DNA from: Minisyncoccota bacterium
GTDB taxonomy: Bacteria; Patescibacteriota; Minisyncoccia; Minisyncoccales; Minisyncoccaceae
NCBI GenBank assembly: GCA_041649435.1
Contig: JBAZNB010000003.1
Location: 29,041 to 93,040, forward strand
DNA length: 64,000 nucleotides
Direction of reading: 5' to 3'
The notes under the pieces were generated by a model. That model made no database searches. It had not been told where the DNA came from and saw only the letters and a list, made by a program, of their open reading frames with translations. The position numbers and the translations under genes were made by a program. Of this stretch, positions 29,080 to 62,303 are shown one piece after another. Within the stretch, counting starts at the first letter, position 1. Each line of letters begins with the position of its first letter.

Positions 29080-29724
29080 TTAAGTAATTATTTCTGGGGG
29101 CAGTTCTGGGTAGTATCCCATTTCCGCTTGTTTTGGATGATGTAATGACCAAAGCAATTCCAATACCTCTTCTGATCCCATTGCTGCTGATTTTAACCCG
29201 CAACGTCGAAGCCCCAAAGCAACATATTCAATTCTTTGCAAGAGCTGATATTTTCCTTTTTGGAAAAAATCTTCAGTGAGAGCTGATTGAGACACTGGTT
29301 TTCCTCCCAGATTTTGAGCAGCTGAAGAAGTAGAAAGCTCTAAAAGAGGATAATAAGGGATAACCACATAAAAGCTTTTATTCATAATAGACCCATCTGC
29401 TACCAGATCTTCAATAAATTTTCGATAATCTGCAGTTTGAATTTTTAATAATTCGTTTTTTTGTTTTGACTCTAATTCTTTTATTTTATCAATATATCCA
29501 GTAATGTTTACTTTTCGCGAACTAACTATCATTTGGCAGGAAAAATCCAAAGAATTAAGAAAATTTTGAAAATTAAAAATAATCGCCCCCTGTTCTTCTT
29601 CAGACTTTAAAGCAAAATTAATAGAAGAAACAATGAGCATCCCCCTCATTGATTGGTCATTCATTATCATAATCCCCTCGCGGATTTGTTTAATTGGAAT
29701 AAATTGTTGCGTGGGAGTAGCCAT
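29080..29724 (-). CDS. VirB4/TrbE-like T4SS ATPase, N-terminal 214 aa part
   Basis: Same reading frame as 27268-29070, separated only by a TAA (plus strand tta at 29080-29082) and three codons. Content resembles the VirB4 N-domain (IMIMNDQSMRGMLIVSSINFALKSEEEQ). Confidence 0.5.
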   Translation of the reverse strand: MATPTQQFIPIKQIREGIMIMNDQSMRGMLIVSSINFALKSEEEQGAIIFNFQNFLNSLDFSCQMIVSSRKVNITGYIDKIKELESKQKNELLKIQTADYRKFIEDLVADGSIMNKSFYVVIPYYPLLELSTSSAAQNLGGKPVSQSALTEDFFQKGKYQLLQRIEYVALGLRRCGLKSAAMGSEEVLELLWSLHHPKQAEMGYYPELPPEIIT

Positions 29725-29729: not shown

Positions 29730-30152
29730 TTATTTTTCAAAATCTATTTTTTTAATTAAGTTTTCTATTTTTCCGGTTTCTTTTATTTTTAAAGGAGATG
29801 GTTTTTCTTGAAGTTTTGCTTCGGCCAATCTTTTTTCTTTTGGCGAAGAAAGAAATACAGGAGATTGTTTTCTTTTCCAAAGGAATAATTTATTATTTAA
29901 TGTGTAGGTAGTAAAATTTTTTCCCACCTTAGCTACTCCCAATCCTTCTATTTTTATAAAAGCAAGGGCAAAGGCAATTCCAAAAAGTAAAACAGTGATT
30001 ATAACATATAAAGTTAAATGGTTTTTTGACATTAAAAAATATAAAAAAAAAGAAATTCCAAAAGCTGTACCAACAAACATAGTTTGGCTTAGAGTAAGCG
30101 GCCCTAATATTTTCGGGTCATGTTCGATAAATTGTGGCACTCGAAAATCCAT
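29730..30152 (-). CDS. VirB3-like small membrane protein
   Basis: 140 aa; DPKILGPLTLSQTMFVGTAFGISFFLYFL matches the VirB3 DP-lf-G-tRP motif followed by TM helices. Lies immediately upstream of virB4-like, the canonical order. Confidence 0.5.
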   Translation of the reverse strand: MDFRVPQFIEHDPKILGPLTLSQTMFVGTAFGISFFLYFLMSKNHLTLYVIITVLLFGIAFALAFIKIEGLGVAKVGKNFTTYTLNNKLFLWKRKQSPVFLSSPKEKRLAEAKLQEKPSPLKIKETGKIENLIKKIDFEK

Positions 30153-31273: not shown

Positions 31274-32725
31274 GTGATGAAAATGGTTTTCTGGAAAAAA
31301 GAAAAAAAAGAAGAAGTAAAACGAACAGCTGAAGAACAACTACAAAGCTATCAGCAAAAAAGAAAACAAGCCCGCAATAAGGGATTGGTAATTATGATTT
31401 TTGCTGTAATTTTTGGAATTGCTTTAATCGCAATGTCTACTTCTAATGTTTTTTCTCTCATTGGAGCAACAGCCGCAGCGATTTTGATTGTAGTATTTTT
31501 TGTTTTTTTAGTGCTTTATTTTATCTGGGCAAAACACGACATCTTAACTTGCAATGTCAATGAAGGATATTGCAAAGTTATTGTAGTGGGAGATAAGTTC
31601 AAAAGAATTGTTTTTAACCACAAAGGCAAAGCAATGAATAAAGATTGGGAAATCGTGGAAGAAAATAGTCCTAATGCATATTACAAAGATAAAAGTACTT
31701 TAGGTATGCATACAATTTGGCCTTTATTTTTCGGCAAGGTTTATACCCACATCTTAGCCTGGCGGAAATATGATTTTTTGAAAAAAGCTCCAATTGACAG
31801 GAGAGAGTTGTTAACTCAAACAAGCTTGATGGATTATCCATATTATATCGAAACCCTTCAGGCTGAAGACAAAGACCGGGCTCCGCTTGATCTATTTACA
31901 GTAGTAACAATGCGGATAGTTAATCCGTATAAAGCTTTGTTTAAAATTACTACTGAGTGGATTGAGGTTGCTACTCCAAAAATACAGGGCACTTATGTGG
32001 CTTACATCAAACTGCACTCCTTTCAGGAAATGCTGGAAAATGTGAAGTCGCTTGGCGACAGCATTTTTGAAGAAATGAAACAGTCGGGGGGTATTTTTGA
32101 AGAGCTTCGCGATATTTATGGAGTGGAAATAATCTCTATAGACGTAATAGAGATTATTGGTGGCGACAAAGACATGCAAGCAGCGATTAAAGCAAATGCT
32201 GTCGCCAAGCTTCGAAAAGATGCCACTATAACTGATGCCGAAGCAGCGGCCAAGAAAAAAGTAATAGATTCTGAGGCCGAGATGCAAGCTCGAGCTAATA
32301 AAACAGCGGGTCTCTTTATGACTTTAATTTCAGGAAGAACTGGTCTTTCTGAAGATAAAATAAAAGAGTGCATGACAGAGCACCCCCAAGAATTCCAAAA
32401 AACATATGGACCGGAAATTGAAGCTTGTAACAAGCTGGTTGAACAAATGGTGTCAGCTGAAGCTAATGGTCTGGTTCAAATTTTGACTAGTGGAAGTACT
32501 GGTTCATCAGGCGGAGGAGTGAACAATGACCTTATTGCTACGGTTGTTGGGATGCTCAAGGCAATGAACACTCCGGCTGTTTCTGGTAACTCTCTAAATA
32601 AAAGCGGAGGGAAATCACAAGCACAATCAGAACCAACAAAACAAAACCCTTCAGAAGAAAAGAAACTTACGAAGGAAGAAAAAAGGAAAAAATTTTTAAA
32701 AGATAATGGACTTGAAGAATACTAA
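31274..32725 (+). CDS. SPFH/band-7 (stomatin/flotillin-like) membrane protein
   Basis: N-terminal TM helices followed by an SPFH-like core (...YGVEIISIDVIEIIGGDKDMQAAIKANAVAKLRKDATITDAEAAAKKKVIDSEAEMQA) and a Gly/Ser-rich tail. Confidence 0.6.
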   Translation: MMKMVFWKKEKKEEVKRTAEEQLQSYQQKRKQARNKGLVIMIFAVIFGIALIAMSTSNVFSLIGATAAAILIVVFFVFLVLYFIWAKHDILTCNVNEGYCKVIVVGDKFKRIVFNHKGKAMNKDWEIVEENSPNAYYKDKSTLGMHTIWPLFFGKVYTHILAWRKYDFLKKAPIDRRELLTQTSLMDYPYYIETLQAEDKDRAPLDLFTVVTMRIVNPYKALFKITTEWIEVATPKIQGTYVAYIKLHSFQEMLENVKSLGDSIFEEMKQSGGIFEELRDIYGVEIISIDVIEIIGGDKDMQAAIKANAVAKLRKDATITDAEAAAKKKVIDSEAEMQARANKTAGLFMTLISGRTGLSEDKIKECMTEHPQEFQKTYGPEIEACNKLVEQMVSAEANGLVQILTSGSTGSSGGGVNNDLIATVVGMLKAMNTPAVSGNSLNKSGGKSQAQSEPTKQNPSEEKKLTKEEKRKKFLKDNGLEEY

Positions 32726-32737: not shown

Positions 32738-33130
32738 TTACACTAATTCTTGCCCAATCCCTTTAGGCGTTATTTTCATTTTAGGGGTTGTATCTAATGC
32801 ATCAGTCTCGTCGTCTATAGATAATTCTTTTAGAACGTAATCATTTTTAATTAATTTAGCGGATATCTCTTCTGCTGCTTCTCTAGTAAGATTTAAATTT
32901 TTAATAAGATTATTTACAACCTCAGCCGTTGATATTTTTTTATATTTCAAATCTAGGATTATTTTATATAAAATTAAAGACGCCAAGTTTTTTTGAGAAG
33001 ACATTTTGAAAAATAGCCTCTCTCTCGCTGTTTTAAAAGACGATAAATTATTACGAATATTTTCGTCTATATCTTCAAGTCGGTATTGGCTAACTAAGTC
33101 TTCTATTAAGTTGTATATTTCATCTAGCAT
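32738..33130 (-). CDS. hypothetical protein
   Basis: 130 aa with no recognisable domain; downstream of and co-oriented with the virB6-like gene. Confidence 0.35.
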   Translation of the reverse strand: MLDEIYNLIEDLVSQYRLEDIDENIRNNLSSFKTARERLFFKMSSQKNLASLILYKIILDLKYKKISTAEVVNNLIKNLNLTREAAEEISAKLIKNDYVLKELSIDDETDALDTTPKMKITPKGIGQELV

Positions 33131-33141: not shown

Positions 33142-35058
33142 TTATGGATTAGATTGTATATATAAAATATTATCTATAAAGTTGTCTATTTGACGTTGGA
33201 ATTCATCTCTCTCTTGTTGCGTCGTCGCAGCTCGCATTTGGGTTAACAAATGATTATAGTGAGCATTAATATTTGCTTGGTTCTGTTGTCCCCCGAGTCT
33301 TCTTAAGTTGTTGACTTGAGCTGGAGACCCATCTTCAATCGTTCTCCTAATTTGTCTTTCATTTGCATGAGTTAAGACATCCAAAGAATTAAGAGACTCT
33401 GCTCGAACTGTTTCTTGGAATTTTCTAGCCGACATCCCTTGGATTGTCTGTTGGGTTGTTTGTCCATTAATCCTTAAGGATAACTCTGGAGCATATTCTG
33501 CAATTTTATTTAGGTCGGCGCCTCTTCTTCTTAATTCAACGTGATTTGCGGCAATCCAATTAATTTCAGCATCTGTTATGGCGGCATCTTCTCCTCTGTC
33601 CACAGCAGAAATAATTCCAGCTATTTTTTCTTGCCTACTTTCAACAGAGATCGCATTTTGTTGAGTAATTCTTTGCAATTCGGCCGCTTCTATATTTTTA
33701 TAAGACGAAACTAAATTATTAATTTCTTTTTGTTCCTCTTGAGTTGCGCTTCCAGCTGGAGCCACACCAAGAGGTTCTTTTACATTTCTTGTATACCAGC
33801 GGTTAATTTGGCTTTCGGCTGATTTTCCTTGAGTAAGGCCACCTTTTAGGCCTCCTCTTAATGCTCCCCCAGCGCCACCTACAGCAGAGGAAAAAGCTGA
33901 AGAAACTCGTCCCCCTCCTTCAGCTCGGCTTTGAGTCCATTGATTTGATATTCCCGACCCAGCTCCAACAGCAGCACCGATAGCCGCTCCCCCAATTACC
34001 CCCTTAGTAGTTCCAATTGCTTTATTGGCCAAACCTTTTATTTTCCCGCCTACTGGACCGCCTGAATCAAGAGTAATAAAAAATCCAAGAATTAAGACAA
34101 TAAAAGGAATAAGATAAGCAAAAAGCAAACCCAATGTTCCATTTAAAACATTTCCTGTCGGAGGATTAATAATTTGACTGGAATCTGTGGCAATTTGAAA
34201 CATTATTAGATTTGATAAAAAAATAGTTCCAGCGGCCGGGATTCCCAAAAAACACCATTGAAGAAAATCATCCCACCAACCATCCCAAGTGCAAATTCTG
34301 GGAAAAATTTTTAAAAAATATTTTGATTCTGGTAAAACCTTGGTGGCAAAAGCAACAGGAGATAAAATCACTAAAATCCAAAGCATAACAATTCTTACCA
34401 AAAGCAGTAAAGCAAAAAGCAAATAAATTACACTGGCAAAAATAGCAAAAATCGTGAGAACAAATAAAGTTGGAATATCGGCCGAATTAAAAGTTGTCAT
34501 TTTTTCAGACAAAAGATTGACAAAAGTAGGAGGAACCCCACCCTTCAAAAGAAGATCCATTATCATTGTCGCAAGGTCAATAATTAATCCGCAGAATACT
34601 GGAGTAAAATTTATTAGAGCTGCAATTAAAATAAAATTAACTAAAGTTTTTTTTGCTCGAGTTTCTTGGTAGCCAAGGATTATACTAAGCGCGATTATAA
34701 CTAATCCAAAAATAAGGACAACGTTGGCCAAATTTCTTACAAAACCCCAGCCAGTGGAAACAATCACATTGTCTGCTCCAGTAAAAGAAACAGCTAAAAA
34801 ATTTCCACTTGCTACCCAAGTTAATAAATCAAGGGATACATTTAAAATATAAAGCGGAACAGTCATTAATAACCCAAAAATAGCGCCCAATAAAGCTTCG
34901 CCTAAAGAATCTTTTACGTTACTTAAAAAATTAAATGGATTTAAATCTGATAATTCAAAAGCAGAGGCAAAAAAAGGGAAAAATAAAAAAGAAATAAAAA
35001 CAAAGCAAAAAAACGCAATTATTGTTTTATGAGAAAATATTTTTTTGAAAAATTTCAT
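33142..35058 (-). CDS. VirB6/TrbL-like polytopic membrane protein with Gly-rich linker and C-terminal soluble domain
   Basis: 638 aa; signal peptide, at least 6 TM helices, Gly-rich stretch (GGPVGGKIKGL...GGAGGALRGGLKGGL), then a ~250 aa hydrophilic domain. This is the TrbL/VirB6 architecture. Confidence 0.5.
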   Translation of the reverse strand: MKFFKKIFSHKTIIAFFCFVFISFLFFPFFASAFELSDLNPFNFLSNVKDSLGEALLGAIFGLLMTVPLYILNVSLDLLTWVASGNFLAVSFTGADNVIVSTGWGFVRNLANVVLIFGLVIIALSIILGYQETRAKKTLVNFILIAALINFTPVFCGLIIDLATMIMDLLLKGGVPPTFVNLLSEKMTTFNSADIPTLFVLTIFAIFASVIYLLFALLLLVRIVMLWILVILSPVAFATKVLPESKYFLKIFPRICTWDGWWDDFLQWCFLGIPAAGTIFLSNLIMFQIATDSSQIINPPTGNVLNGTLGLLFAYLIPFIVLILGFFITLDSGGPVGGKIKGLANKAIGTTKGVIGGAAIGAAVGAGSGISNQWTQSRAEGGGRVSSAFSSAVGGAGGALRGGLKGGLTQGKSAESQINRWYTRNVKEPLGVAPAGSATQEEQKEINNLVSSYKNIEAAELQRITQQNAISVESRQEKIAGIISAVDRGEDAAITDAEINWIAANHVELRRRGADLNKIAEYAPELSLRINGQTTQQTIQGMSARKFQETVRAESLNSLDVLTHANERQIRRTIEDGSPAQVNNLRRLGGQQNQANINAHYNHLLTQMRAATTQQERDEFQRQIDNFIDNILYIQSNP

Positions 35059-35464
35059 ATTTACTTGTGCATTAGTGAATGTTATAATTATTATAACATT
35101 AATTGAATTTTTGGTAAATTACAAAATTATGAAGGCCAATTTAAGAGCAAGCCCTGAAACTATTATGATCCTTCCTTTGGCAATAATGGGAGATTTGATC
35201 GGAATCATCCTGCTTTTATTTGGGCTAGACGATTGCGGAATAACAGACTTAGTAATAACACCAATTTTAACAATTTGGATTATGATAAAAAGAAAAGATC
35301 CAACAATAATGAAAAAAGTTTTATTCCGTTTACTTGGTTATGGCACAATAGAGCTTATCCCCTATTTGGGAGGAATTTTCCCAGGGTATAGCTTAATCGT
35401 GATTCAAACTATTTTGCAGACTCAAAAAGCGGAAAAAGATTCAGAAGAAATTATTTTAGAATAA
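35045..35464 (+). CDS. small hydrophobic membrane protein (uncertain; true start may be ATG ~35129)
   Basis: 139 aa ORF with 3-4 predicted TM helices. Overlaps the virB6-like start region on the opposite strand. Confidence 0.3.
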   Translation: MKNFIFTCALVNVIIIITLIEFLVNYKIMKANLRASPETIMILPLAIMGDLIGIILLLFGLDDCGITDLVITPILTIWIMIKRKDPTIMKKVLFRLLGYGTIELIPYLGGIFPGYSLIVIQTILQTQKAEKDSEEIILE

Positions 35465-35482: not shown

Positions 35483-38400
35483 GTGAAGAAAAAAATGAAA
35501 AAAAATAAAAAAATTGGATTAATTATTTTAGGATTATTTTTTTTAATTCCGTTAACTGTTTTTGGCGCCCTAGAAAATACCTATCCTTCTCTTCCAGGAT
35601 TTTCTCCAGAAGAAGGAACAGGGCTGTTGGTTTATTTTTTTAATTTTTTGGTTTATTCCGGAGGAATAGTGGCTGTCTCAGTAATTATTTATCAAGGAAT
35701 AACCATTTTTTTATCCAAAGGAAATGTAGCAAAAATAAATGAAGCTAAAGATAGAATTAAGGCGGTATTTTTAGGGTTAACAATTCTTTTAGGCGCTTAT
35801 TTTATTTTAATGTTTATTAATCCTGATTTAACAAAAATTAATCTTCCAATCTTAGAATACGGCGAAAAAATTTTTTCGAATAATAAAGAATTCGAATCAA
35901 AAGATGTTGTTTATAAAGAAATTGCCTTGGGAGCAATTATCGAAGCAATTTTGATGCCGTCTTCGACAGCTGAAAATCAATATTTTAATTATTCCCAACT
36001 TAACAAAAAAACAGAAGAAAAATGTTATTTATATGACGAAGAAGGAAACACAATTGATCGCAATAATGATGGCGAAATTAACAACCAAGATATGGTTGAG
36101 GGAATGGACTTGTCTGTTTGTATGGATAATTTACTAAGAGCAACAATTGCAAAAATTAGCTGGTTTAACGGCAATCAATCAATTTGTAATGGTGCGATTG
36201 CTAATACAGAAGGCCCGATTAATGCTTTGAAAAAATTTATTAGGACAGGATGTACTTGTGAGCCTTGCACTAAATGGCCAGATAAAACATTCCCAGAAAC
36301 AAACTGGCCGCAAGGGTGTAAAACAACAGATACAAAAGTTACTTGCTATGACAATGACGGATCAAGCTATGAAATAGATGGAACTTATTGTGACTGGAAG
36401 TGTAAGTGCTGTGGAGAGCCTCGGGGAAGTGATATTGGCTGCCAAGATCAACCTTCTAGTCCATTTTATTTGGAAAATGTTTATATCAACCACGATCCTT
36501 GTACAAATCGTCAACAGATTGATTGTGCTCGGCAAGAAATGAATTTTAGAATTTACGGCAAAGGATTGGATTTGGGATTAAAATGCGCTGGGATTTATGA
36601 ATACAGTCCAGACATTGCCCCTTTTATCGATGAAGAAACTAATACTTTAAAAATAATTGAAAAAACAGCACCAGATGGAAAAATATATAAAGCTCAATTC
36701 TTAACTTTTACCGGCGCAGTTGAAAGCAGTGTTCTCAATAGAATCGAAAGCTTTAAGTCGTATTTCAATAATCGGTTAGCAGAACTACAAATTGCTAAAA
36801 ATTTTATTAATGCCGATAAAACAAAAAATATTTTATCTTTAGCTGAATTTCAAAATCTCCAAGAAACTAGTTCTGAAAATGTGGTTAAAGAACCTTTGAT
36901 TACCGGCTACGATCCCTCAACTTACCATTCTTTTGTTTGTAAAAAATATAATATTAATAATGTTTGCGTTCAAGGAGAGTTGGTAAAATTAAAAGAATCA
37001 GGATACGCTTTTTTGCCTGGACAAAATTATGAATCTTTTCCTACTCAAGGAGAGGGCCAAGTGCCAGCAACTTCCCCAAGCTCGGAAATTGACAATACTA
37101 AATATACAAGCGATAAATATGCTTTTGGCTGGCCATTTACAGCAAAAAGAATTTGGAATAATAAATTAGGAAAAACAGCTCTAAAAAGCGATTTATATAA
37201 TACTGGAGACCCTGATACCTTATATATTTTATCTTATCCAGGAACAACTGATCCAAACAAATATCCAGCTTCTGCTCGGGCCGGAATTATTGATAATTCC
37301 CCTACCAATAATCAATGCACCTTAAAAGATTCGGAAAAAACAGATAAAGAACAAATTGAAAAAGGAACAGCAGTTTCTAATATTCCGATTGGACAATTAA
37401 CTGACAACATGACTGAATATGTAGAACAAATAAATTTAATTTTAGACAACACAGTTGATGAAGTAAATAATGTGATTGATTCTGCTGATCAGCTAGCTAA
37501 TTATTTACCAGAACATTGCAGCTGTTCTTCTGGCTGTGGAAATACCAATATTTGCGAACCTCAACTTGGACCAACCTGCGCCGAGCCATTTCAAGTTTGC
37601 GGAGCGCCTCCTTGCACGGATTGCGAAACATCGGAACAAGTTGTTTGTGAATTTGGATGTCTTGATTGCGGAGCAACTCAAGCAATAGATTCAGCAAGAT
37701 ATTATTGCGTAAGAGATGGATCTCCTACGGGAGAATGGTCAGCTGCTAGAAATTATGATTTTGATGCTGCCGGGGTATTAAATCCATTTAATTATATGCC
37801 TTCGCAAGAAGGATGTTATGTTTCTAATCCGGCGAATAATTATACATCATTTTATTTATTAAAAAATCCTTTTCTTATAATTGGTGGAGAGCATTGCGGA
37901 TGCGAACAAGGATTATCATATCTAATAAGAGATGCTCTTGATGGTGCTCATGAATGCAATACTTTGGTTTATGGCAGTTCACTAGAAGGTTCTTTTGGAG
38001 CAGTTTGCACCACAAATGATGTTCAAAAAATATTAAATAATTATGAATATCGGTATGACAAGCAATTATTAGAATCAGGATATATTTGTACTTGTGCTCA
38101 TAATATTGGTTCAACCCAATGCTATAATCCAATAAATAATGAACCATTAAATTGCACACTAAATCAATTAAACGATGAAGAGTTTACAACAGATAGCGAT
38201 TGTTATCAATTATTAGAAAAATCAATTGCTGGTGATTGTATAAAAAATGCCAAAACAGTCACAAATTTAGGCGGCTTTTGGGATATTGCTTCTTGTAATG
38301 GAAAAACTATTAGAATAACCCCAAAATATACTTCTAATATTATCTCTTGCGAAGAGGGTTATACAAACTTAACCGAAGAAGAAAGAATTTTAATCGAAGA

Positions 38401-39250
38401 TAATTATAGTCAAGAAATTACTTGGCTTAATGAGCTTGGCAAAGGACAAGACGAATTGACTTATAGCGGTTTAGATTGTTGTGGTCTTTATGTAGGGAAT
38501 ACTAATGAACTTCAAGCAAATATTGATAATTTAATGTCTAATATTCCGAGCGGATTTAATACCGAATGTTCGATTGATTTTGAAACAGGACAATCATCAA
38601 TTAAAATTAGTCGAAAAGTTGATTTGAGCGGACCAATTATTCGGCCAGAAAAAATAAAAGATAATCAAGCTTATTATGTTTGTCCATATAATGAAATCAA
38701 AACCCAGCAATCCAGAATTTATAAAAGAGTGGGAGATCCTTCTTGGGTTGGATTAGAAGATTTAACCACAGATCAAGCATGCTTGGATGATGTTCCTGGA
38801 TTTTTACAAAGGATAGAGCAATGGCGAGAAAGATTGTGGAATTATCAAAATGCAATAGATTTATCCCCTATTGATGTTAATCGATTTACTTTATTAGATT
38901 TATTAAATGTTACTCGTTCACGTTTTCATCAGTGTATTCAGGGATATGGCCAGCAATATAAGCCGGCTGCGACCACGGTTTACTTATTTACTTGCGAAGA
39001 AGGAATTGATGCTCAAAACTTAGGGGCTTATCGTATCTATCCAGAATTTCCATTAACCAATTCATTTTTATCAGAAACAAAATCAGAATCTCAATGGGGA
39101 TGCTATCCTTTGAATAGTTCAGTTCTCAACGCTCAAGAAAGAAAAAATTGTTTTGAAAATAAAAATAAAAAAGGAGTTGACGGATGTCAATCAATTTTAC
39201 AAGAATATAATTTAATAAATGATTTTTATTGCTGTTCTGGATCTCAATAA
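35483..39250 (+). CDS. giant secreted Cys-rich protein with N-terminal VirB2/TrbC-like pilin module (paralog 1 of 4)
   Basis: 1255 aa; signal peptide ...VFGALENTYP, then two hydrophobic helices joined by loop SKGNVAKINEAKDRIKA. The remainder is hydrophilic with many Cys clusters (CTCEPC, CKCCGEP, CSCSSGCGNTNICEP, CTDCETSEQVVCEFGCLDCG). Confidence 0.6.
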   Translation: MKKKMKKNKKIGLIILGLFFLIPLTVFGALENTYPSLPGFSPEEGTGLLVYFFNFLVYSGGIVAVSVIIYQGITIFLSKGNVAKINEAKDRIKAVFLGLTILLGAYFILMFINPDLTKINLPILEYGEKIFSNNKEFESKDVVYKEIALGAIIEAILMPSSTAENQYFNYSQLNKKTEEKCYLYDEEGNTIDRNNDGEINNQDMVEGMDLSVCMDNLLRATIAKISWFNGNQSICNGAIANTEGPINALKKFIRTGCTCEPCTKWPDKTFPETNWPQGCKTTDTKVTCYDNDGSSYEIDGTYCDWKCKCCGEPRGSDIGCQDQPSSPFYLENVYINHDPCTNRQQIDCARQEMNFRIYGKGLDLGLKCAGIYEYSPDIAPFIDEETNTLKIIEKTAPDGKIYKAQFLTFTGAVESSVLNRIESFKSYFNNRLAELQIAKNFINADKTKNILSLAEFQNLQETSSENVVKEPLITGYDPSTYHSFVCKKYNINNVCVQGELVKLKESGYAFLPGQNYESFPTQGEGQVPATSPSSEIDNTKYTSDKYAFGWPFTAKRIWNNKLGKTALKSDLYNTGDPDTLYILSYPGTTDPNKYPASARAGIIDNSPTNNQCTLKDSEKTDKEQIEKGTAVSNIPIGQLTDNMTEYVEQINLILDNTVDEVNNVIDSADQLANYLPEHCSCSSGCGNTNICEPQLGPTCAEPFQVCGAPPCTDCETSEQVVCEFGCLDCGATQAIDSARYYCVRDGSPTGEWSAARNYDFDAAGVLNPFNYMPSQEGCYVSNPANNYTSFYLLKNPFLIIGGEHCGCEQGLSYLIRDALDGAHECNTLVYGSSLEGSFGAVCTTNDVQKILNNYEYRYDKQLLESGYICTCAHNIGSTQCYNPINNEPLNCTLNQLNDEEFTTDSDCYQLLEKSIAGDCIKNAKTVTNLGGFWDIASCNGKTIRITPKYTSNIISCEEGYTNLTEEERILIEDNYSQEITWLNELGKGQDELTYSGLDCCGLYVGNTNELQANIDNLMSNIPSGFNTECSIDFETGQSSIKISRKVDLSGPIIRPEKIKDNQAYYVCPYNEIKTQQSRIYKRVGDPSWVGLEDLTTDQACLDDVPGFLQRIEQWRERLWNYQNAIDLSPIDVNRFTLLDLLNVTRSRFHQCIQGYGQQYKPAATTVYLFTCEEGIDAQNLGAYRIYPEFPLTNSFLSETKSESQWGCYPLNSSVLNAQERKNCFENKNKKGVDGCQSILQEYNLINDFYCCSGSQ

Positions 39251-39257
39251 TTAAATT

Positions 39258-40604
39258 ATGAAAAAAACAATTATCAAAACAATATTATTAGTTTGTCTTT
39301 TTTGGCCAAAATCAGTTTTGGGAGCTTTGGAAAATATTTATCCCCCTATTCCGATTTCTTTGAATAAAACCTTAACAATTACTGCCAGCAGCAATGCGAC
39401 AGAATATCTTTTATATTTATTTGCTTTTTTTTCTGGCCTGGGCACAATTATTGCTTTAGGAGCCATGATTTGGGCTGGGGTAGAAATGATTCTTTCACAT
39501 GGCAATCCTCAAAAGTTTTCTGAGGCTAAATCCAAGGCTCAAAACGCTTTGATTGGACTATTAATTTTATTTGGAGCTTATCTTATTTTAAATGTTGTGA
39601 ATTCAGAAATAAAAAATGTAAAAGTAGAACAAATTGATTGCAATCAGGAGGATATTTGTGTTGCTCGTTATTTTTTGGGAAGTGAAAATCAAAAAATAAG
39701 CTATTCTTCGTCTCTTCCTGATAGTCCTAATTTAGATTTAAAATCAAATGAGGTAATGGTAATTAAAAGATTTAAAGGATTAAAAGAGATTTGGGGATTT
39801 CCTGAGCTTGATTTTCAAGGAACTCCGTTTTTAATTCAAGGATATCGAAACGACGATGAATCAGATTTGAATAATGATTTGCCAGCAGAAATAACCATTG
39901 ATAGTTCTGTTAAATCCGTTAGAGCCTATATTAAACAACCAGGAATATATTTATATGATGGATTAAATTATCAAGCTAGCAAGATCCCTCCCCTATTTTT
40001 AAGAAATAGCACTGTTGATTTGGGAGAATTTAAAAATAAAATAAAATCAATTCAAATTTTTAATGAACCAAATTTTAAATATTATGCTGTGGTTTTTGCC
40101 ATAGAAAAATATAATGATAGTTATGATTATAATTTTTATCCCCAATCTCCCAGCTCAGATTGCAGCGATGTGATTGAAGAAAGCGATTCGTCTTTTTCTG
40201 GGCCGAGCGGATCCATTTTAATTTTTAAGAGCTCGGATTCTTTTTTAGCAAAAAATCATAATCCAGGCATAACTTTTTATAATACTTTAAATTGCTATAT
40301 CCCACTGGGCTCGGTATCTGGTCAATTAAGCGAGTGTTCGGCCCCGTTTCAAGGATTATTTAAACTACAAACAATTCCAATTTCAAATTGCTCTGGAATA
40401 TCTGCTGGAGATGTTTTGTCTGTTAGACTCTCAGAAGAATCGGGAGTTTTGATGATTGCAGAATCATCTGGAAAAAGATATTGTAATTTTTTTGACATTG
40501 ATAGTGTAAATATTGTTAGTGGTAATTGTATCAGCGATAATATATTCTTTCGAAAAGCAGAAATTAATAATTTTATAATTATCCCTTATGAAAAAAAATT
40601 ATAA
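39258..40604 (+). CDS. secreted pilin-module fusion protein (paralog 2)
   Basis: 448 aa; ...SVLGALENIYP signal end, helix-loop-helix AGVEMILSHGNPQKFSEAKSKAQNALIGLLILFGAYLIL. C-terminal domain shares LKEIWGF / GIYLYD / FYNTLNC motifs with paralogs 3 and 4. Confidence 0.6.
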   Translation: MKKTIIKTILLVCLFWPKSVLGALENIYPPIPISLNKTLTITASSNATEYLLYLFAFFSGLGTIIALGAMIWAGVEMILSHGNPQKFSEAKSKAQNALIGLLILFGAYLILNVVNSEIKNVKVEQIDCNQEDICVARYFLGSENQKISYSSSLPDSPNLDLKSNEVMVIKRFKGLKEIWGFPELDFQGTPFLIQGYRNDDESDLNNDLPAEITIDSSVKSVRAYIKQPGIYLYDGLNYQASKIPPLFLRNSTVDLGEFKNKIKSIQIFNEPNFKYYAVVFAIEKYNDSYDYNFYPQSPSSDCSDVIEESDSSFSGPSGSILIFKSSDSFLAKNHNPGITFYNTLNCYIPLGSVSGQLSECSAPFQGLFKLQTIPISNCSGISAGDVLSVRLSEESGVLMIAESSGKRYCNFFDIDSVNIVSGNCISDNIFFRKAEINNFIIIPYEKKL

Positions 40605-40616
40605 TAAAAATATAAT

Positions 40617-41996
40617 ATGAAAAAATTATCAATAATTATTTTTACAGTACTTTTGTTTACGGGTTTTTTAATTCAACCCTGTTTTGCTTTAGAGATTCAA
40701 TATCCGGAAATAACCACCATAGATGGCCAAAAAATAACAATTACGGATGAATCTTCTCCAGACCAGTACGTAATTTATGTATTTTATATTTTAATAAGCC
40801 TGGGGGCAGTGATTGCTTTTATTGTTTTAGTAATGGCTGGATTTAATTTTTTAAACAGCGGAGGGTTGCCGACAAAAATAAGCTCTGCAAGAAATCAAGC
40901 TCTAGGCGCTTTTGTTGGACTTGTTGTTTTGTTCTCTTGCCATTTAATTCTAAATACAATTAATAAATCTTTAGTTAATACTCCTGTTAAAGCAATAGAC
41001 TGCAAAGATGTTCCAATTTGCGTAGCGTTTACTAGGATAGCAAACGAAAAATCGAAAACAACAGTGGAAATGGCTATTCAGACAGCTAATGATAATTTAT
41101 TGTTACAAGAAGGAGAAAGTATTGTTATTAAAAAGTATGATAATTTAAAAGAAATTTGGGGGTTTCTTGATTCAGGATTTAGAGGCACGCCAATTAAAAT
41201 TTTTCCTGATCCCAATAATCCAGAGGCAGAGGCAAAAGACTTGGCTCTTAGTCCTACAGCTGATGGCACAAATTTAAAATCTTATAAAATAATCGAAAAA
41301 AGAGAAGGAATTTATCTGTATGATAGACCCAATTTTGAAGTTGGTGATGGATCTATTGCCCCGTTTTTTTTAGCTGGCAATGTAAGCGATTTTTCTAAAA
41401 CCAATCCTGATTTTTTTCGTAAAACCCAATCAATTCAAGTAGTTGCTCCACGGTTTACTCCTGCCGATCCTGAAAATCAAGTTGGTCATTTGGGAACTAC
41501 ACCAGGAGCAGTATTTTTTTCTGAACCAGAATTTAGAGGAACATGTTTGGAGTTTTTTCCAACTGCGGGAACAGAAACTGGATTGAATGATTTAAATCAA
41601 GAAGGGCAATTAGGAAAACCATTAATCCCTTTTGGTTATAATGTAAGCTCGGCAATTACTTTTAAATATACTACAACTGGGAGTGCGGCAGTTAATGGGG
41701 TTGTTACTTTTTATAATACACTGAATTGTCAAAAAAATGAGGCTATTCCTGAACAAAAATCTTGTGAGCAAGAAATTTATGAAAATCCGTGGGGAATATA
41801 TTTAAACTCAGCTTGTGGGCAAGATTTTAAAATAAAATCATTTAAAATTAATGGTCCAGTAGGAGTGGTTTTAGTTGAAGGAAATAAATGCCAATATTTT
41901 GATAAAAAAGATTTTTGTTCAGGTAATTGTGTTTGTTCAATTTTAGAAACCAGTGTTAGTAATCCTGACATTTTCGAACTCTTGCCAATAGATTAA
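40617..41996 (+). CDS. secreted pilin-module fusion protein (paralog 3)
   Basis: 459 aa; CFALEIQYP, loop NSGGLPTKISSARNQA; motifs LKEIWGF, GIYLYD, FYNTLNC. Confidence 0.6.
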   Translation: MKKLSIIIFTVLLFTGFLIQPCFALEIQYPEITTIDGQKITITDESSPDQYVIYVFYILISLGAVIAFIVLVMAGFNFLNSGGLPTKISSARNQALGAFVGLVVLFSCHLILNTINKSLVNTPVKAIDCKDVPICVAFTRIANEKSKTTVEMAIQTANDNLLLQEGESIVIKKYDNLKEIWGFLDSGFRGTPIKIFPDPNNPEAEAKDLALSPTADGTNLKSYKIIEKREGIYLYDRPNFEVGDGSIAPFFLAGNVSDFSKTNPDFFRKTQSIQVVAPRFTPADPENQVGHLGTTPGAVFFSEPEFRGTCLEFFPTAGTETGLNDLNQEGQLGKPLIPFGYNVSSAITFKYTTTGSAAVNGVVTFYNTLNCQKNEAIPEQKSCEQEIYENPWGIYLNSACGQDFKIKSFKINGPVGVVLVEGNKCQYFDKKDFCSGNCVCSILETSVSNPDIFELLPID

Positions 41997-42000
41997 TTTT

Positions 42001-43311
42001 ATGAAAAAAAACATTTTATTATTTTTATTTATTTCAATTCTTTTTTGCGCTAATAGCGTTTTAGCTTTGGAAATTTCCTATCCCACAATCGGTGGAGTAT
42101 CTTTGCCTCCTAATCCTACGTTTACAAATTATTTTATTTATTTTTTTAATTTTGCTTTATTCGTTGGAATGGTGGCGGCTAGTTTTGTTTTGATTTTTGG
42201 AGCAATATCATATTTTCTTTCTAAAGGAGAAATTGGGAAAATAGAAAAAGCAAAAAGAGAAATCATAAGGTCTTTTATCGGGCTTGTTGTTTTATTTGGA
42301 TCAGTAATGATATTAAATACGATTAATTCTGGAATTAATAAAAATACTTTAGAAAGTTTGAACCCTGAAAAATATTCTGGAGGAATAATTTTACAATATG
42401 AAAACGGCCGAGAACAAAACATTGCTGGCGACATGACCGAAACGCCTTATAATGTAGGCGGAATTAAATGGCTTTCCGCAGAATCGGAATTACCGAGAAT
42501 ATTTGTTTTTCCGCAAAAAGATTTTTCTGGCAACCCCCAAGAAATTATGAACGGAAACAGTGTTTTTATTGCTAAAGGAAGTTCAATTTCTTTTGATTGG
42601 CAACGTCCCGGAGTTTATCTTTATAATGCGCTTGATTATCAGTTAGAAAACAGAAGGTCGCCATTATATTTATTAAATAGCCAGCCAGCCTTAGGAAATA
42701 ATGGATTTGATAAAAAAACCGCTTCGATAAAAATAGTTCAGCCTTCGGAAAAAGGATTTGTAAAATACGGAGCCGTGCTTTTTTCCGGGGATAATTATAC
42801 TGGAAAATGTTCTTGGGTAATGAATGATTTGCCAAATATTAATGAAGTTAGTCAGAGCAATCCTGAAGAAAATAGTGTTCGAATTAACGAAAGCGATGAG
42901 TTTTCTGGCATTGGCCAAGTATCTTCAATTTATGTTTTAAAAATTGATCCCGCCACTCCCCTTTCCGAGGTCGTGCTTTATAATGGTACAAATTGCGAAT
43001 CAAAAGATTCTATTTGGAATGATGCCACCAAATCATTTCTTGAGCCGAATTATTGCGTTGTTCCAGAATATCAAAAAGAATTTAAATTTGAAATTTGCGA
43101 AACAATGCCTCAAAACGGAGATACTATTTTATCAGCGAAAATAAGCGAAGGTGCTGTTTTATTATTAAAAGACAAAGAAGGAAATTGCCAACTATTCAGG
43201 AAGCAAGGACTAAGCAATTGTATTACTTCTATTACTTATGGGAAGGTTTATGATATAGAAAATAGAGAAAAGACAAAACCTTTATATTTTACGATTTTAC
43301 CGGGTAAATAA
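42001..43311 (+). CDS. secreted pilin-module fusion protein (paralog 4)
   Basis: 436 aa; SVLALEISYP, loop SKGEIGKIEKAKREI; motifs GVYLYN, LYNGTNC. Confidence 0.6.
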   Translation: MKKNILLFLFISILFCANSVLALEISYPTIGGVSLPPNPTFTNYFIYFFNFALFVGMVAASFVLIFGAISYFLSKGEIGKIEKAKREIIRSFIGLVVLFGSVMILNTINSGINKNTLESLNPEKYSGGIILQYENGREQNIAGDMTETPYNVGGIKWLSAESELPRIFVFPQKDFSGNPQEIMNGNSVFIAKGSSISFDWQRPGVYLYNALDYQLENRRSPLYLLNSQPALGNNGFDKKTASIKIVQPSEKGFVKYGAVLFSGDNYTGKCSWVMNDLPNINEVSQSNPEENSVRINESDEFSGIGQVSSIYVLKIDPATPLSEVVLYNGTNCESKDSIWNDATKSFLEPNYCVVPEYQKEFKFEICETMPQNGDTILSAKISEGAVLLLKDKEGNCQLFRKQGLSNCITSITYGKVYDIENREKTKPLYFTILPGK

Positions 43312-44295: not shown

Positions 44296-45369
44296 GTGAA
44301 ATATTTAAAAACCCCAAAGGGCCGATTTTTTTGTTTAATTGTCTTGACTTTATCAGTTTGGGGTCTTTTTGCTATTTTGCCCTTAAATAAAGAACAGGCT
44401 AATATTTTTGCTAAATCTTATAATAATTTTACCAATATTGAACCAGGAACACAAGCAGTGCCAAGCCTGATTATCGGGGGAAATAGTATTGTTAGCGCAG
44501 TGCCATCCCCTGTTTTTATTTCTTCTCAAAATTTAGGAGTATTACTAGTTGATGACACCAGCTCAGGAGATTCCAAATCTATTATTAAATATATAGTAGA
44601 AAAAGGAGAGACCCTTTCTGAAATTGCGGATAAATTCAATATTTCGATAGATACTATTCTTTTAACAAACGAATTAACAAGCAGTCGAATCGTTCCTGGC
44701 CAAGAATTAATGATTTTGCCTGTAAATGGCATAATGCATATGGTAGAAAAGGGAGAAACAGTAAAGTCTTTAGCTTTAACCTATAAAGCAAATGAAGAAG
44801 AAATTATTAATTTTAATGATTTATCAGAAAACGGAGATATTTACGTGGGAGATATATTAATCATTCCTGGAGGAAAAATGCCGATTAAGCAAGTGGCTAA
44901 ACCACAAGTCAAAGATGTTTCTGGAGCAGGCTCAAACTCGCAAATAACTTTATCTGATTCTTATTTTATTGTTCCGGCCGTGGGAAAGATTTCTCAAGGA
45001 GCTCATTTCTCTTATATTTCTAATGGCCGAAGCTATTATAATGCTATAGATATTAGTAATGTTATTGGAACGCCGATTTTAGCAGCCGCTGGAGGAGAAA
45101 TTCAAATCATGAAAAATGTTTGGCCTTATGGAAATTATATTACAATTGCTCATCCAAATGGCGTTGTAACCCTGTATGCCCATTTAAATTCGTTTGCCAA
45201 AGGATTAACTATAGGATCAACAGTTACCCAGGGCCAGATTATTGGATATATGGGCAATACGGGAAGAGTTATCAGTTTGGGAGGAAATGGATCCCATTTG
45301 CATTTTGATGTAAGAGGAACAACCAATCCTTTAACTAAATATAGAACAGGAACGAAAGTTTCTTACTAA
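44296..45369 (+). CDS. LysM-domain M23 family peptidase
   Basis: Signal/TM, two LysM repeats (YIVEKGETLSEIADKFNIS... ; HMVEKGETVKSLALTY...), and C-terminal M23 motifs (HxxxD region ...; GNGSHLHFDV). Confidence 0.8.
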   Translation: MKYLKTPKGRFFCLIVLTLSVWGLFAILPLNKEQANIFAKSYNNFTNIEPGTQAVPSLIIGGNSIVSAVPSPVFISSQNLGVLLVDDTSSGDSKSIIKYIVEKGETLSEIADKFNISIDTILLTNELTSSRIVPGQELMILPVNGIMHMVEKGETVKSLALTYKANEEEIINFNDLSENGDIYVGDILIIPGGKMPIKQVAKPQVKDVSGAGSNSQITLSDSYFIVPAVGKISQGAHFSYISNGRSYYNAIDISNVIGTPILAAAGGEIQIMKNVWPYGNYITIAHPNGVVTLYAHLNSFAKGLTIGSTVTQGQIIGYMGNTGRVISLGGNGSHLHFDVRGTTNPLTKYRTGTKVSY

Positions 45370-45379: not shown

Positions 45380-45407
45380 ACAAGCGCCTTCTGAGGCGTT
45401 TTTTTAT
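45380..45407. terminator. bidirectional rho-independent terminator
   Basis: cgcct-tctg-aggcg hairpin followed by ttttttt. Confidence 0.55.
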
Positions 45408-46007
45408 TTTTTCCGATACATTAAAGCTTCGGAAATATGGGAAAAAAGAATTTTTTCTGAAGAATCCAAATCAGCAATAGTTCGAGCTACTTTTAAAACT
45501 CGATGATAGGCTCTGGGAGAAAGCTTACCAGAATCAACAGCTTGTTTTAAGAGACTTTTTGAATCATTATCAAAACTGCAAAAAGTTTTTATTTCCGGAA
45601 TTTGCATTTCTGAATTTTTTAATATTTTTAAAGATTTAAATCTATCGGCTTGAATTTTTCGAGCAGTTTTTATTTTTTCTTTTAATTCTTTTTCTAAAGA
45701 TTTATTTTCTTCAGCATTTAATTTGTCAAAATTTATCCGAGGAACATTAATAAACATATCAATTCTGTCCATTAAGGGGCCTGATAATTTTCGGCGATAC
45801 ATTTGAATTTGAGAGGCAGAACAAGTGCAAGCTTTTTCTGGATCTCCATAATAGCCGCAAGGGCAAGGATTGGCCGTGGCAATTAAAATAAATTGTGCCG
45901 GAAAGCTTATTTTTGTTTTTGCTCTTAAAATATTTATTTGGCCTTCTTCTAATGGCTGTCTTAAAGATTCTAAAACATCTCGGTGGAATTCCGGCAATTC
46001 ATCTAAA
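45404..46007 (-). pseudogene. comM: comM/yifB (Mg-chelatase-like AAA+ ATPase) 3' fragment, severed by element insertion
   Basis: The frame reads ...LDELPEFHRDVLESLRQPLEEGQINILRA...ATANPCPCGYYG, the conserved ComM/YifB C-terminal half. An in-frame stop lies immediately upstream at 46019-46021, inside element DNA. Confidence 0.8.
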
Positions 46008-47717
46008 GTTATTGTCCCTCAATAACTGATTACCCTCTGATATTGTGAGACCGACGTTAGCGTTGTTGTCCCACAATACTGGACTGGCCACTCCCACTAA
46101 GGCCGCTAAACCGTGAGAATTGGCTTGTTTTTCGGCATTAAAGTTCAATTCCACCTCGGCCTCTGCCTTTTTAGGATACACGATAACTCTTTTTACGAGA
46201 AGCCTTAGCGCCTCCTGTTGCTCGTCATAGGTCAGGCTATCCAGTTTTTTTGCCAGTCTTGCGTACTGACTTTCTATTAATTCGGCCATTTTCTTTACAC
46301 CCTTTCGATCAAGTAGCCTGCGCTCAAGTCTCATTTTATCTTGTCTCAATTTATCCTCTTGCTCGCGACACTCTGTAACTGATTTTTTATAGTTTTCGTG
46401 GTCCATTCCCTCATCCTCCGAATAAATTTGACCGAGGCGGTACCTTTTTAATGTGAGTGACTTCAGGCTTTTATCAATTTGTTGTAAACGTTCCTCGGTG
46501 TCGTCCTTTGATATTCTTTCCTCATTGTATTTCCTTAGGCGCTCAAGTGTCAGCTCGGGCTTTTTGAGAATGTCTTTTATTTTATCCCAAATTGGGTAGA
46601 GGCGCGTTTCTGCTATCTGCTCACAAGCCGGGCACCTTTGCGTTGTACCGACTTCCATTTTGGTACACATTCCGTGGTAGTATTTTGATCCGTTGTTTCC
46701 GTCTTTCTTTGGTGGCTGGTATCCACCGAATAGCTTAAAACCACAGCTTCCGCAATAAATAATTTTTGAAAATAAATAATTTCTTTTCTGATTTCTCTTT
46801 GAAAATTCCCTGTTCCTCAAAAGCTGTTGAGTGCAGGCGTCAAAAACTTCCCTCGGTACAATTTCCGGTACTTTAATTTCTACCCATCCTGCGCGGTCTC
46901 TTAAAAGGTTCTCGTCAATCAAACTGGTCAAATTATTAAAAGGTCTTTTGTATTTTCGGTAGTAGGCGCTCCCTGTGTAAGTTTCGTTAGTTACAATTCT
47001 GCCAAGTGTTCTTTTATGCCAAACGTTTAATGTGTCTTTTTTGGACACCTTTCTACGTGGCAGGGGTATTTTCATACTATTTGCTCTTTTTTGTACTTCC
47101 CGAAGCGACAAGCGATCCTCTACAATCCAACGAAAAAATGTTTTAACCCATTTCGCTTCCTCGGGTACTACTTTCAATTTTTGAGTTTCGTCGTCTACTC
47201 TGTAACCATAAGGTGGAACGCCTGTTACCCATTTTCCGTCTTTAGCGGCTGAAATTCTGCCATTCGTTGTTCTCTCTCGGATCGTGTCTCTTTCCATCTC
47301 AGCGATAATTGAAAGAAAGCCAACCATTCCTTTCCCGTACACAGTGGTTGTATCAAATGATTCAGTTACTGATTTGAATTCCATTTTCCATTCGCGGAAT
47401 TCTTTTAGGGTGTTTAATAAAAGAGTGGCGTCTCTGAAAAGTCTATCAAGTCTATAAACAAGAATGATATCAAACTCGCGGTTTTTCGCGTCTGCAAATA
47501 ATTTTAATGCCCCGGGCCGTTCTGATGCTGATAATGAGCCGGAAAAACCCTCATCGCGATAAATGTGTTTTTCGTCGAGGGTGTAGTCGTTTGCAATAGC
47601 AAACGCTTTTAATTTTTCCTCTTGAACAGCAAGCCCGTACCCAGTTGTGGCCTGCTCATTGGTGGATACTCTTAAATAAATTGCGGCTCTTAGTCTTTTG
47701 TTTGGTGTGTTGTTCAT
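45999..47717 (-). CDS. large serine recombinase (integrase)
   Basis: 572 aa; resolvase catalytic domain with AAIYLRVSTNEQ (nucleophile Ser), recombinase domain, Cys-rich zinc ribbon (CGSCG...CPAC), and C-terminal coiled-coil. Confidence 0.85.
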   Translation of the reverse strand: MNNTPNKRLRAAIYLRVSTNEQATTGYGLAVQEEKLKAFAIANDYTLDEKHIYRDEGFSGSLSASERPGALKLFADAKNREFDIILVYRLDRLFRDATLLLNTLKEFREWKMEFKSVTESFDTTTVYGKGMVGFLSIIAEMERDTIRERTTNGRISAAKDGKWVTGVPPYGYRVDDETQKLKVVPEEAKWVKTFFRWIVEDRLSLREVQKRANSMKIPLPRRKVSKKDTLNVWHKRTLGRIVTNETYTGSAYYRKYKRPFNNLTSLIDENLLRDRAGWVEIKVPEIVPREVFDACTQQLLRNREFSKRNQKRNYLFSKIIYCGSCGFKLFGGYQPPKKDGNNGSKYYHGMCTKMEVGTTQRCPACEQIAETRLYPIWDKIKDILKKPELTLERLRKYNEERISKDDTEERLQQIDKSLKSLTLKRYRLGQIYSEDEGMDHENYKKSVTECREQEDKLRQDKMRLERRLLDRKGVKKMAELIESQYARLAKKLDSLTYDEQQEALRLLVKRVIVYPKKAEAEVELNFNAEKQANSHGLAALVGVASPVLWDNNANVGLTISEGNQLLRDNNFR

Positions 47718-51913: not shown

Positions 51914-51915
51914 CT

Positions 51916-53944: not shown

Positions 53945-54110
53945 GTCTTAAATTAAAAAGGTAAAAAATAAAACAGGGCTTAAGCTCTGTTTTATTTTAA
54001 TTGTCGATGCATTCCCGGGTTTGTTGCTATAACCTCTCGGCGCCTATCTAACTCTGAAAGGATTGGGATTTTTATAAACAAACTTCGGTATATTGTGGGA
54101 CATTTATCAA

Positions 54111-60339: not shown

Positions 60340-60371
60340 ATAGAAAAATACGGCCCTAAGATTTAAGGCCG
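60340..60371 (-). terminator. rpsO-pnp intergenic hairpin (terminator/attenuator-like)
   Basis: cggcc-11 nt-ggccg hairpin (60351-60371) overlapping the rpsO stop, followed on the minus strand by a T-rich tract. Confidence 0.45.
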
Positions 60372-60622: not shown

Positions 60623-60737
60623 TTTTTTATTTTTTAATTTTTATTATGCGCCTTGTTTTAGTTTTTTAACCAAAACAGGTGTCTCTTCAATATTTAATTG
60701 TTAATAAGATTGTCTTTTTTATCGCAGGCTTCCGTTG

Positions 60738-60810: not shown

Positions 60811-60842
60811 CTATTTAGATTAACAGAATTTCTTGATTAAAA

Positions 60843-61280: not shown

Positions 61281-61350
61281 CTTTTTTTAGGTTGCTATTC
61301 TGGGTTGAGTATAGTTTATTTTGTTTAAAAAATCAAGGCTTTTTAAGTTC

Positions 61351-61483: not shown

Positions 61484-61489
61484 GTAATT

Positions 61490-61519: not shown

Positions 61520-61525
61520 AATTAG

Positions 61526-62302: not shown

Positions 62303-62303
62303 T

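Follow-up and report, generated by a model that had tools for sequence, protein, structure and literature searches.

In a 64,000-nucleotide stretch of a Minisyncoccota bacterium genome (assembly GCA_041649435.1, contig JBAZNB010000003.1, positions 29,041 to 93,040; hereafter the window), four tandem genes, P1 to P4, encode proteins that begin with the same N-terminal module and continue into large C-terminal domains. Sequence comparison identifies this N-module as a VirB2/TrbC-type pilin module from type IV secretion systems (T4SS; Pfam family PF18895, T4SS_pilin), not as a pilin of a type IV pilus. We interpret P1–P4, with moderate confidence, as the pilin array of a T4SS that is monoderm, conjugation-derived and of the Patescibacteria type. 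Every array member is a fusion protein here, and the fusions would act as surface-display or adhesin-like subunits. The members of the array are:

35483–39250, + strand: P1, the giant of the array and its first open reading frame (ORF), 1255 aa
39258–40604, + strand: P2, 448 aa
40617–41996, + strand: P3, 459 aa, with the architecture of P2
42001–43311, + strand: P4, 436 aa, with the architecture of P2 and the most divergent of P2–P4

The genes are co-oriented and tightly packed, with intergenic gaps of 7, 12 and 4 nt in the ORF list, and a preliminary description of this DNA had placed all four exactly and had noticed the module that they share. A protein in the database identical to P2 is annotated ‘pilin’ (Candidatus Paceibacterota bacterium).

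The N-module of all four proteins consists of a signal peptide, the motif ALExxYP, and two hydrophobic helices linked by a basic loop. Mutual identity is 25–40%. An alignment of the four N-termini has 23 invariant columns, including A-L-E, Y-P, four loop positions (S78, G80, K84 and A88) and G98, L99 and L102; the loop pattern S-x-G-x-x-x-K-x-x-x-A-K/R and a G-L-x-x-L in helix 2 are conserved throughout. BLASTP matches of P1 to P2 (73 bits) and to P4 (70 bits), at 34–39% identity, cover residues ~1–125 only. In all four proteins it is the same stretch that PF18895 matches, at 34.6 bits for P2 (gathering score 26.6), 17.9 bits for P1 (residues 52–110), 23.8 bits for P3 and 24.8 bits for P4, and over this stretch the N-modules of P1, P3 and P4 are homologous to that of P2 (BLASTP, 67–73 bits). 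P2 has two further matches, both under threshold – to TrbC (PF04956, 18 bits) and to the NCBIfam ‘Mbov_0395 family pilin-like conjugal transfer protein’ of a Mycoplasma integrative and conjugative element. Because of the invariant columns, the localised BLASTP matches and the common Pfam match, the similarity is not mere signal-peptide and transmembrane composition, the case that the preliminary description had named as refuting it.

The preliminary description had called the module ‘pilin-like’, which was right in that it is a real pilin module; the class is VirB2/TrbC. Some of the motifs given there are less uniform than they were written. In (G/A)ALE(N/I)xYP, the ALE and YP are kept, but the preceding residue is G, G, F and L in the four proteins. 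The loop motif S-x-G-x-x-x-K-x-x-x-AK is kept, except that P3 has AR in place of AK, and the ILN(T/V)xN at the end of helix 2 is ILMFIN in P1.

P2 can be divided into a leader (~1–23), ALENIYP, a helix at 47–79, the basic loop, a helix at 84–114, a linker, and two C-terminal domains. In its AlphaFold2 (AF2) model (predicted local distance difference test, pLDDT, 74), the two helices are long, and a low-confidence linker of ~15 residues (115–124) lies between helix 2 and the beta domain. In P1, residues 1–~118 make up the signal peptide and a VirB2-like helical hairpin. The pilins of PF18895 and PF04956 are small, essentially hairpin-only proteins as a class, whereas P1–P4 have 436–1255 aa. A profile search with the N-module returned 27 PF18895-type matches of 68–226 aa; this word-indexed search missed even the query proteins, and serves for comparing sizes, not for counting members.

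Behind the hairpin, P2–P4 each carry ~330 residues that are predicted to be extracellular. The three proteins align over their full length in BLASTP – P2 and P3 with 150 bits (33% identity over 376 aa), P2 and P4 with 96 bits (28%), and P3 and P4 with 67 bits (24%). As full-length homologues they arose by duplication, which agrees with the preliminary description. On the predicted structure, their C-domain is two tandem beta-gamma-crystallin domains, at ~165–272 and ~273–405 in P2. Comparison of the C-domain with known crystallins gave values of 11.3 for beta-crystallin B3 (150 residues aligned), 11.2 for Protein S, 11.0 for spherulin 3a, 10.9 for the Flavobacterium and Ciona crystallins, 10.7 for clostrillin, and 10.3 for nitrollin. 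When residues 160–272 were aligned to 273–405 with hhalign, the probability was 87% (E 4e-6), with the Ser and the [YFW]xxxx[YF]xG-like motifs in register, and this internal repeat argues for a tandem crystallin pair.

The ‘conserved C-terminal motifs’ of the preliminary description are, on this model, the Greek-key signatures of the crystallin domains, an identity that it overlooked. Greek keys 1 and 2 have their aromatic-corner motifs in (L)KEIWGF-x4-FQG and GIYLYD-x3-Y, KSIQ holds the structural Ser of Greek key 2, and FYNTLNC is the corner of Greek key 4. Four Ser do not vary among 13 homologues (S220, S264, S319 and S388 of P2) and correspond to the four Greek-key serines. The domain thus has the [YFW]xxxx[YF]xG corners and the conserved Ser that mark the superfamily. 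As had been reported, G(I/V)YLY(D/N) and (F/L)YN(T/G)(L/T)NC are present in all three proteins. LKEIWGF is not – P4 has LPRIFVF – and the segment given as KSIQ(I/V) is in fact KSIQI, QSIQV and ASIKI.

With two tandem double-Greek-key domains, Tyr/Phe corners and structural Ser, P2–P4 resemble Protein S and the lens crystallins. Unlike Protein S, spherulin 3a, clostrillin, flavollin and nitrollin, they are tethered to a pilin hairpin and have extra conserved Cys, long insertions and no canonical Ca2+ motif. This motif (N/D-N/D-x-x-S/T-S) is typical of microbial crystallins but not universal; by reading, it is absent at all four Ser sites of P2, where the six residues ending at S220, S264, S319 and S388 are DSSVKS, KNKIKS, SGPSGS and AGDVLS. 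The Pfam family Crystall (PF00030) reaches 13.6 bits in P4 (residues 259–296; gathering score 25) and matches five of 103 relatives, with a best E of 1.3e-5; on these weak scores, P2–P4 are divergent crystallin members at best. A PDB sequence search with P2 gave chance matches only, and a literature search pairing crystallin with Patescibacteria returned only geology and ‘crystalline’ papers.

The ectodomain of P1 (~120–1255) is much larger, with ~1,140 residues and a mass of ~125 kDa. The 56 Cys of P1 (4.5%) all lie C-terminal to residue 180; for 49 of them, conservation extends to 11 or more of the 13 homologues. They include the clusters C257-x-C259-xx-C262, C307-x-C309-C310, C679-x-C681, C711-xx-C714, CC 999/1000 and CC 1250/1251, in line with the CxC, CC and CxxC clusters described earlier. 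That the Cys are conserved and even in number is consistent with a place outside the cytoplasm, and the ectodomain is probably disulfide-rich. At its start is an EF-hand-like Ca2+ loop, D192-R-N-N-D-G-E-I-N-N-Q-D203 (window positions 36056–36091), with the pattern DxNxDGxIxxxD, invariant key residues and an EF-hand_1 match of E 0.071. The 13 orthologues and relatives of P1 are 30–84% identical to it and are all unannotated. The AF2 model of P1 is poor (pLDDT 50), and fold and sequence searches gave no match. A relationship to the crystallins was considered and rejected – hhalign gave a probability of 0.3% between the P1 family and the crystallin C-domain family, so the part that P1 has in common with P2–P4 is the N-module only. 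The weak internal similarity between the two Cys clusters of P1 (hhalign probability 27%) is probably compositional. P1 is described here as an extracellular Cys-rich protein, a putative adhesin or enzyme.

The window has a G+C content of ~32%. Since it carries dnaN, dnaA, rnpA, yidC and jag at 22.4–27.2 kb, it includes the origin from which a small bacterial chromosome is replicated. The array is 6.4 kb from virB4, and four T4SS core-type genes lie within 8 kb upstream of it. The genes and sites that bear on the array are:

23857–25251: dnaA, by which the array is placed near dnaA
27268–29070, − strand: VirB4-like secretion ATPase (P-loop_TraG 96.4 bits, also AAA_10 and DUF87)
29080–29724, − strand: TrsD/TraC-like protein, like the N-terminal part of VirB4 (VirB4_plasma residues 104–233)
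29730–30152, − strand: PrgI/VirB3-like protein (PF12666 PrgI, 31.6 bits against a gathering score of 27)
33142–35058, − strand: VirB6/TrbL-like polytopic membrane protein, 638 aa, divergent from the array
35060–35118, both strands: divergent hexamer pairs resembling promoters, located between the array and the VirB6-like gene
35126–35464, + strand: small polytopic membrane protein, co-oriented with P1 and 18 nt upstream of it
44296–45369, + strand: LysM-LysM-M23 peptidase (Peptidase_M23 81 bits, LysM 79 bits)
60843–61280, − strand: short T4SS_pilin, 145 aa, with no ectodomain, after PNPase, S15 and tRNA-Lys

The protein encoded at 29080–29724 matches VirB4_plasma (E 5e-11) and TrsD (E 7e-4) in NCBIfam, and its orthologue matches PF26593 (TraC-like). 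The VirB6-like protein of the window has no significant Pfam match itself; its positional orthologues match PF19590 (TrbL_3). It has a long hydrophilic Gly/Gln-rich C-terminal tail. Neither a relaxase nor a coupling-protein (VirD4) family came up when most of the window's ORFs of 100 aa or more were scanned with Pfam. The LysM-M23 gene is kept beside the array in all related loci, and VirB1 homologues with M23 and LysM domains have been reported in Patescibacteria (PMC12102498); the peptidase is possibly a VirB1-like wall-remodelling partner. An SPFH/Band 7 membrane protein (31274–32725, + strand) also lies inside the secretion cluster, and is kept there in two of the related loci (L003 and L006).

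The small membrane-protein gene upstream of P1 is listed as an ORF from a TTG at 35045, and its orthologues of 112–148 aa point to an ATG at 35126. A gene of the same size is kept at the same position in L001, L003, L005, L006, L007 and L008. It has no family match in Pfam or NCBIfam, and is probably the first gene of the array operon. The hexamer pairs between it and the VirB6-like gene are TTTACT-17-TATAAT with an upstream TG on the + strand (35060–35088) and TTTACC-17-TATAAT on the − strand (35118–35090). Both are consensus matches only; a promoter and terminator scan of the region showed no enrichment relative to shuffled sequences, and the pair is notable by its position alone.

This locus belongs to a published class that the preliminary description had overlooked. 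The T4SS of Patescibacteria is related to monoderm conjugation machinery, is often near dnaA and usually lacks a relaxase (Quinonero-Coronel et al. 2025, PMC12102498). The same study describes 441 VirB2 arrays in Patescibacteria, with 2–11 tandem pilin genes of 25% mean identity. Like these arrays, P1–P4 are tandem, divergent PF18895 genes in a chromosomal VirB4/TrsD/VirB3/VirB6 cluster near dnaA, and they agree with the published description in number, low identity and proximity to virB4. Because pilin arrays in such loci have already been published, our finding refines a known system and does not define a new one. Epibiotic growth of Southlakia epibionticum requires both the array and the T4SS (Wang et al. 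2023, PMC10633639), while the function of the Patescibacteria T4SS has been called unknown (PMC11665869).

The difference is in the size of the members. The S. epibionticum array (SEML1_0014–0019) is made of short genes – SEML1_0017–0019 have 381–417 nt, and the domain ranges of SEML1_0014–0018 end by residue ~185 – whereas every member of P1–P4 has 436–1255 aa and a folded ectodomain. Compared to VirB2, TrbC and TraA (PF04956), P1–P4 are alike in the leader, the two-helix hairpin, the basic loop and being encoded with VirB4 and VirB6, and differ in the monoderm host, a C-terminal extension of 320–1,140 residues, and no evidence of cyclisation or acetylation. Long VirB2-ectodomain fusions had no description in the literature searched, and both the crystallin-pair fusions (P2–P4) and the giant Cys-rich ectodomain (P1) appear to be undescribed there.

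The architecture is a property of a family. A profile of the C-domain, searched against 1.84 billion representative sequences, matched 392 proteins at E ≤ 1e-3, of which 190 reach E ≤ 1e-10, and in nearly all matches of this profile the match starts at residue ~100–190. T4SS_pilin was found in 87 of 103 sampled C-domain relatives. A custom hidden Markov model (HMM) of the N-module matched 138 of 146, and the eight exceptions are short fragments. The named members are all called ‘pilin’ or ‘C1 family peptidase’ and are from Candidatus Paceibacterota. Judging from these searches, the fusion family comprises several hundred clusters at 50% identity, and the P1-type giant is found only with this locus.

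Synteny of the array slot extends to L001, L003 and L005–L008. In three related genomes (L001, L003 and L005) and in L006, a close relative, it lies between the VirB6-like gene and ksgA and holds, in the same order, a giant and then three mid-size proteins; five ORFs of L003 bear the hairpin. The slot comprises six genes in L007 and L008, five of them with the hairpin. In each of these two loci, a Peptidase_C1 domain (PF00112, E 4.7e-17) is inserted in the crystallin-like region behind the hairpin (10001–12919 in L007, 12509–15436 in L008). In the distant relative L004, proteins of 1484, 504 and 390 aa are encoded immediately after VirB4. The earlier idea of a common pilin anchor with differing ectodomains is thus borne out at the level of the family.

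Positional orthologues from three related genomes are 42–58% identical (43–51% for P3 and 50–58% for P4), against 24–33% between paralogs. Since orthologues are closer than paralogs, the duplications are old and each copy has been individually maintained. The ratio of non-synonymous to synonymous substitution rates (dN/dS, Nei-Gojobori) relative to L006 is 0.076 for P1, 0.117 for P2, 0.091 for P3 and 0.096 for P4, near those of the neighbouring ksgA (0.10) and LysM-M23 peptidase (0.07), and constraint on the C-domains is at least as strong as on the N-modules – a comparison that the preliminary description had itself proposed – or on ksgA. With one-to-one orthologues and dN/dS like that of housekeeping neighbours, there has been no recent diversification. 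On the orthologue identities and dN/dS, a recent duplication or antigenic-variation cassette is rejected, and the ongoing tandem diversification for host range that was suggested earlier finds no support in the same values. Two other genes of the locus evolve much faster than the pilin fusions – the VirB6-like gene (64% identity to L006, dN/dS 0.34) and the adjacent 130-aa ORF at 32738–33130 on the − strand (35% identity, dN/dS 0.30).

In the region 60356–61597, the short pilin gene lies between tRNA-Lys and tRNA-Arg, beside rpsO (S15, 60356–60622) and PNPase. It matches PF18895 with 43.3 bits (against 26.6), TrbC with 19.3 bits, and the custom N-module HMM with E 1.8e-9. Its syntenic position is also occupied in L007, and a pilin gene beside S15 is found both there and in S. 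epibionticum, in which SEML1_0024 adjoins SEML1_0025. The mature N-terminus of the short pilin is Cys-rich: ATCPTCDSIVCCGNEGQPAC.

In the arrangement that we propose, a Sec-type leader would direct export, leaving a mature N-terminus of L-E-x-x-Y-P after its removal. A hairpin has its two ends at one face of the membrane; the mature N-terminus and all residues beyond helix 2 would accordingly be outside. In characterised systems, the VirB2-type hairpin is the element that is recognised, extracted and polymerised by the VirB4/VirB6 machinery. On this precedent, the hairpin may dock the fusions at the secretion apparatus, or insert them at low stoichiometry at the tip, at the base, or as decoration. 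Most of the filament itself would be built from the nearby-encoded short pilin of 145 aa, which is likelier than the fusions to be the filament-forming subunit. The ectodomains would then contact the host, presenting binding, structural or enzymatic domains to its surface, and in a secretion system for which no adhesin of the PrgB type was found, the fusions could serve as the adhesin-like arm. The analogy with PrgB adhesins, and with the capping ‘minor pilins’ of type IV pili and type II secretion system (T2SS) pseudopili, would be functional, a bulky binding domain at the apparatus or its tip. Unlike them, P1–P4 have a VirB2 hairpin anchor, not an LPXTG or a type IV pilin helix, and there is no relation of sequence or fold.

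Several points weigh against this interpretation. P1, P3 and P4 fall individually under the Pfam gathering threshold for PF18895, and the Crystall matches of the window proteins are likewise sub-threshold. The crystallin assignment draws on one AF2 model, of pLDDT 74, built from a 13-sequence alignment. No fold is assigned to P1, which makes ‘adhesin’ one option among several, and the papain-like peptidase in a relative indicates that enzymes can be displayed too. The short pilin is 17.5 kb from the array (~9.4 kb without an inserted element), and SEML1_0024, its S15-adjacent counterpart in S. epibionticum, is listed as non-essential. The dN/dS values are pairwise and gene-wide, with dS of 0.45–0.99, and a few positively selected sites could escape them. 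The literature searched contains no structure of a Patescibacteria T4SS pilus. What the data show is the domain make-up, a model with a crystallin fold, the setting in a secretion locus, conservation and purifying selection; leader cleavage, topology, incorporation into a pilus and an adhesive or host-contact role are steps that we infer.

The fusions could themselves be the major subunits, forming a thick ‘bottle-brush’ pilus coated with crystallin domains, with the short pilin being unrelated or minor. The four hairpin genes do sit where Saccharibacteria have short, essential pilins, the low-confidence linker of P2 separates helix 2 from the beta domain, and F-pilin tolerates surface-exposed C-terminal additions. 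The geometry is less favourable. A pilus of this type has ~5 subunits per layer of ~1.3 nm in a tube of ~8.7 nm, which would leave an outer area per subunit far under the cross-section of a 35-kDa domain, or of the 125-kDa one of P1. A canonical short pilin is also conserved in the same genomic neighbourhood, and we consider a pilus built of the fusions to be unlikely.

An improbable account, too, is that the hairpin was co-opted purely as a membrane anchor, for structural or enzymatic ectoproteins of the envelope that are independent of the secretion machinery. It would suit the wide variety of ectodomains on the same anchor (crystallin, Cys-rich giant, Peptidase_C1), the typically structural role of beta-gamma-crystallins, such as Protein S of the Myxococcus spore coat, and purifying selection at a housekeeping level. 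It does not explain why synteny with the VirB6-like gene, and divergent transcription from an intergenic region common to both, are strict in every related locus examined, or why the L004 array comes right after VirB4, and the conservation of ALExxYP and the loop exceeds the needs of a plain anchor.

We judge it very unlikely that P1–P4 are a rapidly diversifying tandem family that varies attachment or host range, like the VirB2 arrays of Bartonella and Anaplasma. Such versatility has been suggested for Patescibacteria arrays (PMC12102498), the identity between paralogs is low, and deeper in the Paceibacteria the slot has 3–6 genes with different ectodomains and insertions. The one-to-one orthologues, the stable gene number and order in four related genomes, and ectodomains as constrained as the anchors are contrary to it, and neither repeats nor pseudogene cassettes nor a recombinase accompany the array. 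Finally, type IV pilus or T2SS-type pilins or pseudopilins, which the word ‘pilin-like’ and a PilB-type ATPase in the window might have suggested, are refuted by the PF18895 and TrbC matches, two helices instead of one, and the lack of an N_methyl match (G|FxxxE) in P1–P4, when a protein of the same window (16271–17668), the positive control, gives 33.5 bits.

That control, encoded on the − strand, is a type IV pilin of 465 aa that combines N_methyl and DUF2341 domains, and the PilB/T2SSE ATPase is encoded at 13114–14421 on the + strand. Together they indicate that a separate type IV pilus system is present near the secretion locus. Downstream of the array, the Mg-chelatase-like competence gene comM is split into a C-terminal fragment (45404–45997) and an N-terminal fragment (54072–55031) by an insert of ~8.1 kb. 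The insert encodes a large serine recombinase (45999–47717), an HTH_36 protein, two N6/N4 DNA methyltransferases (51083–52698) and several unknown ORFs, and contains a LOOT RNA (Rfam RF03000, 50148–50266, − strand, 88.2 bits against a gathering score of 46.4). In L001, L005, L006, L007 and L008, comM is intact at the corresponding place, with 502–507 aa. Near the end of the window are two tandem paralogs of PlsY-type glycerol-3-phosphate acyltransferase (223 and 240 aa; 61631–63026, − strand).

The Patescibacteria T4SS, encoded beside the replication origin, is conserved across a huge and mostly uncultured radiation, and in the single species tested it is essential. The array provides conserved, strongly constrained candidates for its host-facing part. 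Automatic annotation, with names such as ‘pilin’ or ‘hypothetical protein’, leaves two-thirds to nine-tenths of each of these proteins out of sight. Once Paceibacteria become tractable, the fusions would be targets for antibodies or nanobodies, for localisation by cryo-electron tomography, and for knock-down. A broader and much more tentative idea, which we regard as possible but doubtful, is that the ‘pilus’ of the Paceibacteria T4SS is a display scaffold whose ectodomains – crystallin pairs, the disulfide-rich 125-kDa module and, in relatives, a papain-like protease – are the long-sought host-contact and host-processing parts needed for epibiotic growth. If so, these would be the first VirB2 pilins with globular cargo domains, and the lack of a PrgB-like adhesin in these systems would be explained.

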